This document shows, piece by piece, positions 59,437 through 62,636 of a stretch of 64,000 nucleotides of DNA. The notes below the pieces were generated by a model that was not told the origin of the DNA, did not search any database, and saw only the letters and a program-made list of their open reading frames with translations. The stretch lies in sequence record PX880099.1; one strand, written 5' to 3'. Made by a program: the position numbers and the translations under genes. The stretch comes from a phage. The first letter of the stretch is position 1. Each line of letters opens with the position of its first letter.

Positions 59437-59466
59437 TTGACAAACGTATCCTTCATATGTTAGGAT
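59437..59466 (+). promoter_or_regulatory. promoter, tRNA-cluster type (TTGACA-N11-ATGTTAGGAT)
   Basis: TTGACA 59437-59442; shares ATGTTAG(R) downstream element with promoters at 60025 and 61189. Confidence 0.5.
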
Positions 59467-59676: not shown

Positions 59677-59751
59677 GGCCCTGTAGCTCAATGGGAGAGC
59701 TGTCGGCTCATAACCGATAGGTAGCTGGATCGAAACCAGCCAGGGCCACCA
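59677..59751 (+). tRNA. tRNA-Met (CAT), elongator type or Ile-lysidine
   Basis: Hand-folded cloverleaf: acceptor GGCCCTG/CAGGGCC, anticodon loop CTCATAA, T-arm GCTGG-ATCGAAA-CCAGC, CCA encoded. Confidence 0.75.
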
Positions 59752-59753
59752 AC

Positions 59754-59828
59754 GTCTTTATGGTGTAATGGATAGCACAGGAGTCTTCTAAACTCTTAGT
59801 CAAGGTTCGATTCCTTGTAAAGACACCA
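59754..59828 (+). tRNA. tRNA-Arg (TCT)
   Basis: Acceptor GTCTTTA/TAAAGAC, anticodon loop CTTCTAA, T-arm CAAGG-TTCGATT-CCTTG, CCA encoded. Confidence 0.75.
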
Positions 59829-60024
59829 GAACATTTTAACATGAATTAGCTCAAGTGATTTGAACCCACTACTGATCATGGTGGCAGAGAATGAGGCAAG
59901 TATGTCAGAAATTATAAACAAAGGCCACGGTTATATTAGAAGACATAAATGCTCGAAGAGCACCGTTCGTGGAGAACGGGGGTTGGTGGAGTCACCATTC
60001 ATGGTAAAATGTTTTAAAAAACTA

Positions 60025-60059
60025 TTGACAACAAACATTATTTTATGTTAGATTATAAG
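60025..60059 (+). promoter_or_regulatory. promoter, tRNA-cluster type (TTGACA-N11-ATGTTAGATT)
   Basis: TTGACA 60025-60030; ATGTTAGAT 60045-60053. Confidence 0.5.
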
Positions 60060-60062
60060 TAT

Positions 60063-60153
60063 GGAAGGGCAAATCGACGTGGCGACGAAAACGGTCTTGA
60101 AAACCGCCGAGCTTGAAAGAGCCTTGGGAGTTCGACTCTCCCTCCTTCCGCCA
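60063..60153 (+). tRNA. tRNA-Ser (TGA), long variable arm, atypical D-arm
   Basis: Acceptor GGAAGGG/TCCTTCC, discriminator G, anticodon arm ACGGT-CTTGAAA-ACCGC like E. coli Ser-UGA, T-arm GGGAG-TTCGACT-CTCCC; D-stem could not be paired by hand. Confidence 0.55.
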
Positions 60154-60158
60154 GATTA

Positions 60159-60244
60159 GGTAGATTGGTGAAATGGTAGCCACAACAGTTTGCTAAACTG
60201 TAGTCGGAAACGGCGTGTAGGTTCGAGTCCTACATCTACCGCCA
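60159..60244 (+). tRNA. tRNA-Ser (GCT), type II
   Basis: Acceptor GGTAGAT/ATCTACC, anticodon loop TTGCTAA, long variable arm, T-arm GTAGG-TTCGAGT-CCTAC. Confidence 0.75.
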
Positions 60245-60415
60245 AGTTATCTTTAATGTAGCTTGTTGCTCTTAGTTGCTTGGTGTAACTTTTTGGAAGG
60301 ATGGCTGCAACCATCTTACTTTAATAGAGTAAACTTTCGGCAGATGGCCCCCACCATCTTACCGATACCTCATAGTCAGTGGTGCGAACACTGGCTATTT
60401 TAAAGATAATTTTAT

Positions 60416-60490
60416 ACATCGTTAGCCAAGCGGTAAGGCACTTGACTTTTAATCAAGGGAGCGAAGGTTCGAATCCTTCACGATGTACCA
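60416..60490 (+). tRNA. tRNA-Lys (TTT)
   Basis: Acceptor ACATCGT/ACGATGT, anticodon arm CTTGA-CTTTTAA-TCAAG, T-arm GAAGG-TTCGAAT-CCTTC. Confidence 0.7.
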
Positions 60491-60495
60491 AACAC

Positions 60496-60582
60496 GTAGG
60501 TATCGCATAGCGGCAATTGCTGGAGACTGTAAATCTCCTGCCCTTCGGGGCTTCGTTGGTTCGAGTCCAACTACCTGCACCA
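60496..60582 (+). tRNA. tRNA-Tyr (GTA), type II
   Basis: Acceptor GTAGGTA/TACCTGC, anticodon arm GGAGA-CTGTAAA-TCTCC, long variable arm, T-arm GTTGG-TTCGAGT-CCAAC. Confidence 0.75.
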
Positions 60583-60589
60583 AATTAAA

Positions 60590-60674
60590 GATGGATTGGC
60601 CTAGTGGTTGGGCGACGGACTGTTAATCCGTGAACGAAAGTTCTAGCAAGGTTCAAATCCTTGATCCATCGCCA
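60590..60674 (+). tRNA. unusual type II tRNA with anticodon GTT (Asn codons) on a Ser/Tyr-like scaffold
   Basis: Perfect acceptor GATGGAT/ATCCATC, discriminator G, 3-bp D-stem GCC/GGC, anticodon arm ACGGA-CTGTTAA-TCCGT, 15-nt extra arm GAACGAAAGTTCTAG, T-arm CAAGG-TTCAAAT-CCTTG. Confidence 0.6.
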
Positions 60675-60753
60675 AATAGTGCTTGTAGAGTTAATAGAAA
60701 CCTCTAGAATTTTCTAGAATTGTAGATATCAAATCCTACCAAGCAAATATTTT

Positions 60754-60828
60754 GCTCCTATCGTATAACGGCTATTACGGTTGCCTTGTAAGCAACTTAT
60801 CAGGGTTCGAGTCCTTGTGGGAGCACCA
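60754..60828 (+). tRNA. tRNA-Thr (TGT)
   Basis: Acceptor GCTCCTA/TGGGAGC, anticodon arm GTTGC-CTTGTAA-GCAAC, T-loop TTCGAGT. Confidence 0.7.
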
Positions 60829-60850
60829 ATTTAACTCTAAAGGAGTGTAT

Positions 60851-61174
60851 GTGACAGAAAAAGAGTTAGAGAAATATTTTAATATCAATGTTTTCGATGG
60901 TTTTGATGATATTGAAGATGTTGAAAGATATTATGAAGTAGAGTTAGATAAGGATAACATTGTAATTCTTTCTGCCACTTATGATTGTGCATATTATGAA
61001 GGTGAATCTCACGTTTATTTCTATGATATGAAAACATCTTTGTTTTATGAAGTACACGCATATCATTGTTCTTGTTATGGCTTAGAAGGTCAGTGGGAAC
61101 CTGAAGAAATAGGTGATTTGAGCTTTACGGTTGCATATCTAAACAGACGTGGTGCATCTACTATTTTAAAATAA
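60851..61174 (+). CDS. hypothetical protein inside tRNA cluster (107 aa, GTG start)
   Basis: SD TAAAGGAG then GTG 60851; track ORF (from TTG 60752) trimmed because it overlaps tRNA-Thr. Confidence 0.5.
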   Translation: MTEKELEKYFNINVFDGFDDIEDVERYYEVELDKDNIVILSATYDCAYYEGESHVYFYDMKTSLFYEVHAYHCSCYGLEGQWEPEEIGDLSFTVAYLNRRGASTILK

Positions 61175-61188
61175 ATATTAAAAGCCTC

Positions 61189-61218
61189 TTGACAAAGGGG
61201 CTAATAATATGTTAGAGT
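61189..61218 (+). promoter_or_regulatory. promoter, tRNA-cluster type (TTGACA-N11-ATGTTAGAGT)
   Basis: TTGACA 61189-61194; ATGTTAGAG 61209-61217. Confidence 0.5.
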
Positions 61219-61229
61219 AATATTGTTAA

Positions 61230-61304
61230 GCGGGTATAGTGTTAATGGTAGCATATGAGGTTTCCACCCTCCAGGTGCAGGTTCAAGTCCTGTTACTCGC
61301 TCCA
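61230..61304 (+). tRNA. tRNA-Gly (TCC)
   Basis: Acceptor GCGGGTA/TACTCGC, discriminator T, anticodon loop TTTCCAC, T-loop TTCAAGT. Confidence 0.7.
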
Positions 61305-61404
61305 AGATTATTTAAATGGAATCGCTAGAGAAAATTTCTCTTTTCGCTCATGGTTTTCTCCTTCAAACTCTAGCGGTTCTTTTTAAGTGATTTTTTAGTT
61401 TTAT

Positions 61405-61479
61405 TGGAGATTAGCCTAGTGGGAAGGCAACGGCCTTTGAAGTCGTGATGACTAGGTTCGATTCCTAGATCTCCAGCCA
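61405..61479 (+). tRNA. tRNA-Gln (TTG)
   Basis: Acceptor TGGAGAT/ATCTCCA (U1-A72 as in E. coli Gln), discriminator G, anticodon loop CTTTGAA, T-arm CTAGG-TTCGATT-CCTAG. Confidence 0.7.
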
Positions 61480-61486
61480 ATATTTA

Positions 61487-61562
61487 CAGTGCGTAGCGCA
61501 GTTGGTAGCGTGGGAGCTTTGGACGCTTCAGGTCGCAGGTTCGAGTCCTGCCGCACTGACCA
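61487..61562 (+). tRNA. tRNA-Pro (TGG)
   Basis: Acceptor CAGTGCG/CGCACTG (C1-G72), anticodon arm GGAGC-TTTGGAC-GCTTC, T-arm GCAGG-TTCGAGT-CCTGC. Confidence 0.75.
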
Positions 61563-61567
61563 AATTT

Positions 61568-61642
61568 GCAGAGATAGCTGAGACGGATTAGTGCTACCCT
61601 GAAAAGGTAGAAAGGATGGATCGTTACCATCTCTCTGCACCA
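61568..61642 (+). tRNA. tRNA-Phe (GAA), non-canonical T-loop
   Basis: Acceptor GCAGAGA/TCTCTGC, anticodon arm CTACC-CTGAAAA-GGTAG, T-arm GATGG-ATCGTTA-CCATC. Confidence 0.6.
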
Positions 61643-61719
61643 AATAACACCATCCAAGGAGTAGACTTGGTTAACTGTCAATAGCACATTGAGGCTTCTT
61701 ACAGTGGTGTACTTATTAT

Positions 61720-61804
61720 GGCTAAGTGGTGGAATGGTATACACGATACGCTTAGAACGTATTGCCCCAAGGGATTGTGAGTTCGAGTCTCACCTTAGCT
61801 ACCA
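61720..61804 (+). tRNA. tRNA-Leu (TAG), type II
   Basis: Acceptor GGCTAAG/CTTAGCT, discriminator A, anticodon arm ATACG-CTTAGAA-CGTAT, long variable arm, T-arm GTGAG-TTCGAGT-CTCAC. Confidence 0.7.
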
Positions 61805-61819
61805 AATTATTAGATGTTT

Positions 61820-61898
61820 CGCGGGATAGAGGAGTCTGGTCGTCCTCGCCAGTTTCATATGCTGGAGATCGTTGGTTCAAATCCAACTCCCGTTACCA
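61820..61898 (+). tRNA. initiator-like tRNA-fMet (CAT)
   Basis: 5' CGCGGGA like E. coli initiator CGCGGGG; 1:72 mismatch (C/U); A11:U24 in D-stem; anticodon loop TTCATAT; T-arm GTTGG-TTCAAAT-CCAAC. Confidence 0.55.
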
Positions 61899-61917
61899 AA
61901 TTTTGCAAGGAGATAAA

Positions 61918-62331
61918 GTGACAGCCAAGAAATCAGCCCAGTTGGGAATGAACGTAAGTACCGCTACGGGCAGGTTAACAAAAGATATAATGTGGCGACT
62001 GATCGTTCAGACAAATCAGAACATGTGCTTTCATTGCGGTAAAGAAATGACGAGAGAAGACTTCTCCATCGAGCACAAAGTTCCTTGGTTGGATAGTGAA
62101 AACCCACAAGACTTATTTTTTGACTTGGACAATATTGCTTTCAGTCACTTATCCTGTAATGTTGCCGCAGCACGTAAGCCGAACAAAGGTATTATTCCTC
62201 ATGGAACATCATCAGGATATGATACTCACAAATGTAGGTGTGATGCATGCAAAGCAGCAAAAGCTGCAAGACGTAAAAAAGAATACACACCAGAAAAGCG
62301 CAGAGCAACTTACGAGCGTACTGGTAAATAG
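61918..62331 (+). CDS. HNH homing-endonuclease-like protein inside tRNA cluster
   Basis: CFHCGKEM...IEHKVPW...NIAFSHLSCN; GTG 61918 after SD AGGAG; track ORF (from 61762) trimmed because it overlaps tRNA genes. Confidence 0.65.
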   Translation: MTAKKSAQLGMNVSTATGRLTKDIMWRLIVQTNQNMCFHCGKEMTREDFSIEHKVPWLDSENPQDLFFDLDNIAFSHLSCNVAAARKPNKGIIPHGTSSGYDTHKCRCDACKAAKAARRKKEYTPEKRRATYERTGK

Positions 62332-62336
62332 ATAAT

Positions 62337-62419
62337 AGCCGGGTAGATTTAAAAGAGTATGGTACTCAATATGGCTCCAAACCATAGATCAGGGGGTTCG
62401 ATTCCTCACCTTGCTGCCA
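62337..62419 (+). tRNA. tRNA-Trp (CCA)-like, irregular (possible pseudo-tRNA)
   Basis: Anticodon arm TATGG-CTCCAAA-CCATA matches E. coli Trp loop; T-arm GGGGG-TTCGATT-CCTCA; acceptor AGCCGGG/CCTTGCT has 1 mismatch; extra nt between acceptor and D-stem. Confidence 0.35.
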
Positions 62420-62424
62420 ATTAT

Positions 62425-62500
62425 TGTGGTATCGTACAGATGGTTAGTACACTCGACCGATAATCGAGAAACAACGGTTCGACTCCGTTTACCACGACCA
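62425..62500 (+). tRNA. tRNA-Ile (GAT), C33 in anticodon loop
   Basis: Acceptor TGTGGTA/TACCACG, D-arm GTAC-AGATGGTTA-GTAC, anticodon arm CTCGA-CCGATAA-TCGAG, T-arm AACGG-TTCGACT-CCGTT. Confidence 0.55.
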
Positions 62501-62614
62501 AACTCCGTGCCAGCGGTGTCTTCGAAGAACAAGCCTAGTTCCTTCTAAGATGGAGGGGTGCGACTCCTTAACGCACAATCATAATAAAGCATTTCAAATT
62601 AACAGTATTTATTG

Positions 62615-62636
62615 GCCTCCTTATTGGAGGCTTTTT
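62615..62636 (+). terminator. rho-independent terminator GCCTCC-TTATTG-GAGGC + TTTTT
   Basis: Hairpin plus T5 immediately after tRNA cluster. Confidence 0.7.

Follow-up and report, generated by a model that had tools for sequence, protein, structure and literature searches.

A phi92-like phage and its relatives encode a probable tRNA-Asn that carries a class-II-like extra arm

According to textbooks, a long extra arm is confined in bacterial systems to tRNA-Ser, tRNA-Leu, tRNA-Tyr and tRNA-Sec. The DNA studied here, a stretch of 64,000 nucleotides (nt) from sequence record PX880099.1 (hereafter the window), belongs to a phi92-like myovirus of E. coli/Salmonella (Justusliebigvirus) and carries, at 60590-60674 on the plus strand, a gene for tRNA-Asn(GUU) with such an arm. 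Several described tRNAs come close to it. The tRNA-Asn(GUU) of E. coli (asnT/U/V/W) has the same CUGUUAA anticodon loop, the same anticodon stem but for position 27, and G26, G73, CCA and the 7/5 acceptor/T branch in common with the window tRNA; however, it has a 5-nt variable loop (AUGUC) and U1-A72 where the window tRNA has a 15-nt hairpin and G1-C72, and no sequence relationship links its acceptor, D and T stems to those of the phage gene. The tRNA-Asn(GUU) of phage T5 shares with the extra-arm type the Cys-Asn-Asp slot of T5-like genomes, G73 and the presumed decoding of AAY codons when the host tRNA-Asn is attacked. It is nevertheless a class I tRNA of 78 nt, with a 5-nt variable loop, the stem GCAUC/GUUGA and the site UAAGUU, whereas the window type keeps the host site; in the paper that deals with the T5 gene (PMC12409363), the words 'variable' and 'extra arm' are absent. 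The allo-tRNAs of Mukai et al. 2017 (PMC5389517) resemble the window tRNA in their long variable (V) arm, their G73 or U73, their non-Ser anticodons and, in part, their location in phage tRNA clusters, but their acceptor/T branch is 8/4 or 9/3, their D arms resemble that of tRNA-Sec, and insertion of serine was shown for them. The window tRNA has instead a 7-bp acceptor, a 5-bp T stem, a class-I-type core, a short arm and the full Asn identity set. Bacterial tRNA-Tyr likewise has a long arm (0-1 nt on the 5' side, 3-4 bp, 2-3 nt on the 3' side) while its synthetase still reads the anticodon; unlike the window tRNA it has A73, a 3-bp D stem and the anticodon GUA, and in bacteria the arm is an ancestral trait of this isotype. 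Finally, nematode nev-tRNAs and other eukaryotic V-arm tRNAs with class I isotype anticodons, reportedly the subject of Hamashima et al. 2016, are said to be derived from tRNA-Leu and charged with leucine; their body is class II-derived, whereas that of the window tRNA is not.

That a tRNA with the anticodon GUU lies at this position had been proposed in a first-pass annotation of the sequence, and is borne out by both ARAGORN, which calls a tRNA-Asn(gtt) of 85 nt, and Rfam RF00005, which matches at 56.5 bits where the gathering score is 29, with E = 1.7e-9 over the whole window. The Rfam match is full-length (model positions 1-71) and treats the extra arm as inserted into the variable region. 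At minimum free energy (-29.5 kcal/mol, z = -2.57) the sequence folds into a cloverleaf with an additional hairpin, and 3 of 200 shuffles fold as stably. Part by part, the tRNA reads GAUGGAU / UG / GCCU-AGUGGUU-GGGC / G / ACGGA-CUGUUAA-UCCGU / GAAC-GAAA-GUUC-UAG / CAAGG-UUCAAAU-CCUUG / AUCCAUC / G / CCA, and its features are the following.

60590..60674, plus strand: the whole gene of the extra-arm tRNA-Asn(GUU), 85 nt with the encoded CCA (ARAGORN, Rfam RF00005, fold, identity to phi92 PHI92_gt008)
60590..60596, plus strand: 5' strand of the acceptor stem, GAUGGAU (G1-C72, A2-U71, U3-A70), forming 7 Watson-Crick pairs with 60664-60670
60599..60613, plus strand: D arm, GCCU-AGUGGUU-GGGC, with 4 pairs including U13-G22 and a 7-nt loop that has G18 and G19 and is without nucleotide 17
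60615..60631, plus strand: anticodon arm, ACGGA-CUGUUAA-UCCGU, with the anticodon GUU at 60622-60624
60632..60646, plus strand: extra arm, with the stem 60632-60635/60640-60643 (GAAC/GUUC), the GAAA tetraloop 60636-60639 and the unpaired UAG 60644-60646
60647..60663, plus strand: T arm, CAAGG-UUCAAAU-CCUUG
60664..60674, plus strand: 3' strand of the acceptor stem, AUCCAUC, followed by the discriminator G73 (60671) and CCA (60672-60674)

The sequence agrees with the earlier description of a 7-bp acceptor, a 5-bp anticodon stem with a CUGUUAA loop and a T arm with a UUCAAAU loop, and sequence and fold both confirm that the 15-nt extra arm and G73 are real. The variable region, GAACGAAAGUUCUAG, is made up of a 4-bp stem, a GAAA tetraloop and 3 unpaired bases; with 15 nt and a 4-bp helix, it falls outside the 4-5 nt that define a class I variable loop. 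The core, on the other hand, is not that of class II, with its 3-bp D stem, unpaired 13-22 and enlarged D loop: in the window tRNA-Asn U13-G22 pairs and the D loop has 7 nt. The 3-bp D stem that the first-pass annotation took for a class II hallmark was a misreading, because U13-G22 is the fourth pair. The Rfam alignment has no non-standard D-stem pair in this tRNA and flags 13-22 in the tRNA-Ser and tRNA-Tyr of the window, and in relatives of the window tRNA-Asn the pair 13-22 is Watson-Crick (GCCA/UGGC, GUUC/GAAC). The extra arm alone is class-II-like, and the body is that of an ordinary class I tRNA to which a short GNRA-capped helix has been added. The first-pass annotation had also named two outcomes that would speak against it, a standard tRNA-Asn or a preferred fold without the arm; what we found is a tRNA-Asn that is not standard and no preference for an arm-less fold.

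The gene as such is already known, being annotated as a plain tRNA-Asn in hundreds of GenBank records; it is the architecture that is unexpected, and a full-text literature search found no published description of an extra-arm tRNA-Asn. The phi92 gene PHI92_gt008, annotated as tRNA-Asn GTT, is identical over the 85 nt, and BLAST finds the window copy at 100% identity in phi92 and at least 50 other phage genomes. With the window copy as query, BLAST gives 155 phage records; with the copy of the T5-like phage Lindwurm, 696 records (526 at a query coverage of at least 80%), a set that overlaps the former; and with the copy of BRkr, a jumbo phage of Pseudomonas, 25 records from Pseudomonas phages. 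A second such copy comes from a Phikzvirus. The extra-arm tRNA-Asn is present in hundreds of annotated phage genomes. Our collection holds 54 distinct extra-arm tRNA-Asn(GUU) sequences from viral metagenome contigs and from phages of the rV5/phi92-like, T5-like, T4-like and phiKZ-like groups. It includes copies from Stephanstirmvirinae/Vequintavirinae (phi92, KP13-26, PVP-SE1, Phapecoctavirus), Demerecviridae (Lindwurm, Bas26, Stubb, PSTCR5, SB9), Straboviridae (KpV477, X20) and Pseudomonas jumbo phages (BRkr, fMGyn-Pae01). Many members were added by two pattern scans of IMG/VR, the first of which fixed the anticodon stem, so that conservation of this stem in the first scan is by construction, while the second was made without that constraint. 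A pattern with an enterobacterial-type anticodon stem, applied to 100,044 bacterial and archaeal species (one genome each), found no true extra-arm tRNA-Asn, its four matches being chance matches and not tRNAs, and a BLAST search of all E. coli genomes with the 85-nt tRNA gave no match. As far as the enterobacterial-stem pattern can see, the extra-arm tRNA-Asn is restricted to phages.

The arm is built alike throughout the family. There are 0 unpaired bases on its 5' side in 43 of the 54 sequences and exactly 3 on its 3' side in 44, the stem has 3-4 bp, and the basal closing pair is G-C in most members; the scan patterns prescribed the GAAA tetraloop, and the copy of SB9, found by BLAST, has GUAA, also a GNRA loop. 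In the 18 sequences with a 15-nt region, the extra helix shows double (compensatory) changes at all four of its pairs (4/4), with 98.6% of cells paired, and shifting the 3' partners lowers the pairing to 34-44%. When the anticodon, extra and T helices are taken together, none of 500 shuffles matches the observed values; the T stem also covaries among relatives. Pairs were counted in a gap-free 49-column sub-alignment of these three arms, a full-length MAFFT alignment having been dropped for this use because it left the short arms out of register. The covariation and the shuffle result together mean that the extra helix is under selection. What they attest is selection for pairing and not for any particular function, which suits a functional tRNA-Asn whose arm has no role in defence, either as a tolerated insertion, retained only because folding goes better with a stable helix than with a broken one, or as an aid to the processing or stability of a fast-made, under-modified tRNA. 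We hold this account of the arm to be somewhat unlikely; one point that speaks against it is the very uniform layout (a G-C closing pair in most, a GNRA loop, 3 unpaired bases) across phage families that otherwise share little.

Our preferred reading, to which we would assign a probability of about 0.7, is that the gene encodes a functional tRNA-Asn(GUU) of the phage, that the asparaginyl-tRNA synthetase (AsnRS) of the host most likely charges it with asparagine, and that the arm is a bolt-on. In E. coli, Asn identity consists of GUU and G73 and can be transplanted into tRNA-Lys (review PMC9976931). The window tRNA has this complete set (GUU at 60622-60624, G73 at 60671), and G73 is found in 53 of the 54 family members despite widely differing acceptor stems. 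Because G73 belongs to the Asn and the Ser identity sets alike, it does not discriminate between the two. The anticodon arm is more telling: against E. coli asnT (asnT, serU and thrU were taken by coordinate), 16 of its 17 positions are identical in the window, the only difference being at position 27 (G27 to A), and all 17 are identical in KP13-26, X20 and BRkr. Seryl-tRNA synthetase (SerRS) would impose no such constraint.

The first-pass annotation had left the choice between a structurally aberrant tRNA-Asn and a tRNA that puts serine at AAC/AAU codons. The latter would be a missense tRNA that SerRS recognises by its arm and G73, independently of the anticodon; put more broadly, arm and G73 would let SerRS charge at least part of the pool, and a widespread phage family would deliberately blur Asn and Ser at AAC/AAU. 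The window tRNA does combine the extra arm, G73, G1-C72 and C11-G24, and the arm of the window's tRNA-Ser(GCU) is just as short, with 4 bp and a GAAA loop. Moreover, allo-tRNAs with a long V arm and G73 or U73 inserted serine at sense and stop codons in E. coli (PMC5389517). The acceptor stem tells otherwise, however. G1-C72 and G2-C71 are strictly invariant in the tRNA-Ser of E. coli, and C2-G71 is a SerRS antideterminant (review PMC9976931). Among 49 distinct phage tRNA-Ser from our first set of related loci, G2-C71 is found in all 49 and G1-C72 in 47; the window tRNA-Asn has G1-C72, but its pair 2-71 is A-U, and the antideterminant C2-G71 occurs in 20 of its 54 relatives. Pair 1-72 is U-A in 29 and G-C in 24 of the 54, and U1-A72 is found in none of the 49 tRNA-Ser. 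The U1-A72 members include phiKZ-like Pseudomonas phages; to our knowledge, Pseudomonas is without AsnRS and uses the indirect route. U1-A72 is the pair of bacterial tRNA-Asn and is required by the GatCAB route, not by AsnRS (PMC9976931). As for residue 73, U73 is found in 19 and A73 in 5 of the 49 phage tRNA-Ser (L001-L062; e.g. L001:1232-1321), in place of G73, and one with U73, the tRNA-Ser(UGA) of phi92, is marked as a pseudogene in the record of that phage.

The remainder of the molecule points the same way. The D arm is of class I type, and the base of the extra arm differs in geometry, with 0 nt on the 5' side and 3 nt on the 3' side in the window, whereas phage tRNA-Ser have 1 nt or more on the 5' side and most commonly 1 nt on the 3' side. 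Isotypes were scored with home-made profiles. Scored on a profile made from 46 phage tRNA-Ser, the window tRNA reaches 5.7 bits, against 19.7-57.7 for held-out tRNA-Ser, and the median of the extra-arm family (10.7) is the same as for tRNA-Leu and tRNA-Tyr. A class I profile built from 11 class I tRNA-Asn, which separates class I from class II bodies only, gives the extra-arm family a median of 21.6, like class I tRNAs, and Ser, Tyr and Leu tRNAs 10-13; it was dropped as a test of isotype, not being isotype-specific. Nor did any isotype stand out as nearest when they were ranked by identity of the tRNA body, all values lying at 0.60-0.75, which weakens the impression that contigs L042 and L062 are a 'missing link' to E. 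coli tRNA-Asn; the D arm that they share is generic. Furthermore, Asn accounts for 50 per 1000 codons in the open reading frames (ORFs) of this AT-rich phage (E. coli uses about 39 per 1000), so that mistranslation of 5% of codons would hit the phage's own proteome, and would do so in hundreds of lineages. On acceptor, D-arm, profile-score and family evidence, the aberrant tRNA-Asn is favoured and serine at AAC/AAU is disfavoured, to the point that we regard both the missense tRNA and the deliberate blurring of the code as the least probable proposals considered here.

A compromise would be a dual identity, with mainly asparagine and a minor SerRS-charged fraction that brings low-level Asn-to-Ser ambiguity during infection. 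Parts of both identity sets are indeed present (GUU and G73; arm and G73), and there are viral contigs on which a class I tRNA-Asn is found together with an extra-arm one. Nevertheless, every point raised against the Ser reading applies here too, AsnRS should dominate given a complete identity set to bind, and no observation requires ambiguity; we find this proposal highly improbable.

If the gene specifies a functional tRNA-Asn, as we prefer, the following course may be envisaged from its sequence. The tRNA is probably co-transcribed with its neighbours from a phage promoter, with CCA already encoded; host AsnRS would read G34 U35 U36 and G73 and charge it with asparagine; the charged tRNA would decode AAC/AAU as Asn; and it would supplement or replace host tRNA-Asn during infection, since AAC/AAU make up about 5% of the phage codons. 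The perfect 7/5 acceptor-T branch, G73, CCA and the intact T loop are as expected of a tRNA that is charged and used by the ribosome. The statement of the first-pass annotation that the window has no canonical tRNA-Asn also holds: ARAGORN finds 14 tRNAs in the array at 59677-62500, and the extra-arm gene is the only tRNA-Asn among them, as it is in other phages with nearly complete tRNA sets.

In considering what the arm may do, we turn to host factors that attack tRNAs. AriB, of the PARIS system, cuts E. coli tRNA-Asn(GUU) at 40/41, in the site U36AAUC/C41, and its cleavage of E. coli tRNA-Lys is impaired by a U16-to-C change; the T5 versions of tRNA-Lys, tRNA-Asn and tRNA-Thr together neutralise PARIS (PMC12409363). 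P2 OLD cuts the same anticodon stems at paired CNG motifs, including that of tRNA-Asn, again at 40/41 (PMC12445682), and tRNA-Tyr is the target of PtuAB of retron-Eco7 (PMC11555353). The window tRNA-Asn keeps the host site UAAUCC and the CGG/CCG motifs, its arm emerges 3 bases after 40/41, and it has no nucleotide 17. The AriB targets Lys, Asn and Thr are clustered in the window at 60416-60828, with tRNA-Tyr between Lys and Asn, and each deviates from the host tRNA in its own way: Lys by C16, Asn by the extra arm and Thr by G39. The neighbouring features are these.

60025..60054, plus strand: promoter-like TTGACA-N18-(TG)TAGATT, about 105 nt upstream of the Ser-Lys-Tyr-Asn-Thr block (consensus scan only)
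60159..60244, plus strand: tRNA-Ser(GCU), with G1-C72, G2-C71, a 3-bp D stem with an A13-C22 mismatch, and the variable region A-GUCG-GAAA-CGGC-GU
60416..60490, plus strand: tRNA-Lys(UUU), with the host-like site UAAUCA and C16 in the D loop
60496..60582, plus strand: tRNA-Tyr(GUA), a normal bacterial class II tRNA with A73
60754..60828, plus strand: tRNA-Thr(UGU), with G39 and the site UAAGCA as in T5 (E. coli thrU has UAAUCA)

One use of an intact host site would be that of a decoy: the host-identical anticodon arm would occupy AriB, OLD or other host factors, and translation would be secondary or absent. The retention of the host-like cut site and the CNG motifs, and the contigs that also carry a class I tRNA-Asn, would fit a decoy. 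We consider it very unlikely all the same, given that the conserved 7/5 branch, G73, CCA and T loop suit a tRNA that is charged and used by the ribosome, and that the extra-arm gene is the only tRNA-Asn in phages with nearly complete tRNA sets.

For a translating tRNA-Asn, we tentatively propose that the arm is an adaptive bolt-on that alters how host tRNA-targeting factors see the molecule, and possibly a shield against anticodon-stem nucleases, the Toprim nucleases PARIS AriB and P2 OLD being the leading candidates; we would place the odds somewhat against it. The arm would allow the tRNA to keep a host-optimal anticodon arm and yet survive, while class I alleles such as that of T5 mutate the cut site. 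Among the tRNA-Thr(UGU) of the first loci fetched, both extra-arm copies (2/2), which come from T5-like contigs, keep the host UAAUCA, while 16 of the 17 class I copies have changed it (Fisher's exact, about 0.02; a post hoc comparison of sequences that are not independent). This fits two alternative escape routes, one being to mutate the site and the other to add an arm and keep the optimal stem. Such an association of the arm with unmutated nuclease sites also speaks against an arm with no part in defence, as does the frequency of the two alleles in T5-like phages: the extra-arm gene and the T5 class I tRNA-Asn share the same Cys-Asn-Asp slot there, and the former is about twice as frequent as the latter. 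In favour of an arm without a defence role, hairpins of this kind turn up here and there on tRNAs for Trp, Glu and Ile, none of them a known nuclease target, and relatives from unknown hosts have many different anticodon stems.

The T5-type class I tRNA-Asn overlaps the ORF T5.069 (phage T5, L010:7953-8525), and in relatives the gene lies under a 'putative homing endonuclease' gene or a gene with a T5orf172 domain, which suggests exchange of the two tRNA-Asn alleles by homing.

Several points weigh against our reading as a whole. With regard to charging, class II synthetases approach the tRNA from the variable-loop side, and the arm could therefore hinder AsnRS. T5-like and T4-like members carry G1-C72, G2-C71, C11-G24 and G73, and E. 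coli SerRS charges long-V-arm allo-tRNAs with G73 or U73 (PMC5389517). Contigs L101, L131 and L136 each carry a class I and an extra-arm tRNA-Asn(GUU), a hint of non-redundant roles; L101 has an additional 94-nt copy with a 24-nt variable region and GUAA hairpins. With regard to the arm, relatives from unknown hosts carry many different anticodon stems, and hairpins are also found on isotypes not known as nuclease targets. With its nuclease motifs intact, the tRNA could just as well be one that is simply cleaved, or a decoy. The shield is the weakest step, as the counts behind it are small, post hoc and phylogenetically dependent and as it also draws on an AlphaFold 3 model taken from the literature. 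The published rescue by T5 was dropped as direct support, because the T5 tRNA-Asn is a class I allele of 78 nt and is uninformative on the extra-arm type. Finally, phage Bas34 needed the T5 tRNA-Asn despite an extra-arm copy of its own (PMC12409363). In this phage (Escherichia phage SelmaRatti, L014:3001-3083), the 3' acceptor strand of that copy is ACCCGCU and not ACGGCCC, so the acceptor stem cannot form; the copy is not called as a tRNA, and GenBank annotates a shifted 77-nt tRNA. The broken acceptor may explain why Bas34 needed the T5 tRNA-Asn in the PARIS study, and because of it Bas34 is uninformative and was dropped as a natural test of AriB sensitivity. At this locus there is also a tRNA-His of 91 nt whose stem is disrupted.

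Added hairpins are also present on the tRNA-Thr(UGU), tRNA-Trp(CCA) and tRNA-Glu(UUC) of related phages. A tRNA-Thr(UGU) of 86-87 nt with a hairpin in the variable region is found at L035:4406-4492 and L050:8998-9084, both T5-like, and at L121:1323-1408. The first two have A-GGA-GUAA/GCAA-UCC-CGUU, with G1-C72, C2-G71, A73, a host-like anticodon stem and the AriB site UAAUCA; the L121 copy has the variable region CGGUUAAUACCCUC, U73 and a different anticodon stem. Extra-arm tRNA-Trp(CCA) or tRNA-Glu(UUC) lie at L042:4387-4473 (minus strand), L062:8187-8273 (minus), L136:2197-2282 (minus), L002:3305-3393 and L034:8396-8483 (minus). The tRNA-Trp(CCA) type has C-GGG-GAAA-CCC-CAUU with A1-U72 and G73, and the tRNA-Glu(UUC) of Klebsiella phage KP13-26 has A-GUAG-GAAA-CUAC-CUU. 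With hairpins on Trp and Glu tRNAs, the bolt-on is therefore not limited to Asn, and because the Thr and Trp copies keep the acceptor features of their own isotype, the arm behaves as an add-on and not as a Ser identity device. In Salmonella phage PVP-SE1 (L003:2348-2433), an annotated 86-nt tRNA-Lys(UUU), whose anticodon ARAGORN misreads, has a GAC-GCAA-GUC mini-hairpin in the D loop, the region predicted to be touched by the second AriB monomer.

The tRNA-Lys(UUU) of the window (60416-60490) has its acceptor and T arms in common with that of phi92 (L001:1721-1796) and differs from it in the D arm and the anticodon stem, the AriB site being UAAUCA with C16 in the window and UAACUC in phi92; this looks like module swapping within the gene at regions of predicted nuclease contact. 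In Pseudomonas phage fMGyn-Pae01 (L067:214-273), an apparent 5' half of a tRNA-Lys(UUU) (GUGAUAGCUCAGUCGGUAGAGCAAGUGACUUUUA...) lies between tRNA-Asp and the extra-arm tRNA-Asn; the fragment ends after the anticodon loop, and GenBank extends tRNA-Asp to 94 nt over part of it.

Elsewhere in the array, three near-identical promoter-like sites on the plus strand (TTGACA, an 18-nt spacer, TG and TAGnnT) punctuate the tRNA genes at 59437-59466, 60025-60054 and 61189-61218, and a terminator-like hairpin is found at 62614-62632. Two copies of the direct repeat TCTAGAATT, 10 nt apart, lie at 60703-60721 in the spacer that separates tRNA-Asn from tRNA-Thr, and overlap a weak promoter-like match at 60691-60720. 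The tRNA-Phe(GAA) at 61568-61642 (Rfam, 49.2 bits) has an atypical T arm (GGAUGG-AUCGUUA-CCAUCU region, with no UUC in the loop), and the phi92 RefSeq record flags an identical gene as a pseudogene. A tRNA(CAU) of 79 nt at 61820-61898 has a mismatched pair 1-72 (C1, U72), a G2-U71 wobble and an 11-nt D loop, and is without the three G-C pairs of the initiator anticodon stem; it is a candidate Met, fMet or Ile2 tRNA.

A conserved, covarying extra arm on tRNA-Asn is therefore carried by hundreds of sequenced phages, including the model groups of phi92, rV5-like, T5-like, T4-like and phiKZ-like phages. A class-II-shaped tRNA-Asn across major phage groups is unexpected. Recoding by these tRNAs is improbable; if the arm did recruit SerRS, this would be a natural, virus-encoded codon ambiguity. 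Our findings lead us to question how a class IIb synthetase, and the ND-AspRS/GatCAB route of Pseudomonas, cope with the extra helix, and whether the architecture of a tRNA, and not the mutation of its cut site, can protect it from those nucleases of PARIS and P2 OLD that cut the anticodon stem. Should the arm indeed be a shield, it would represent a new anti-defence route of phages and would provide a simple design rule for nuclease-resistant tRNAs.

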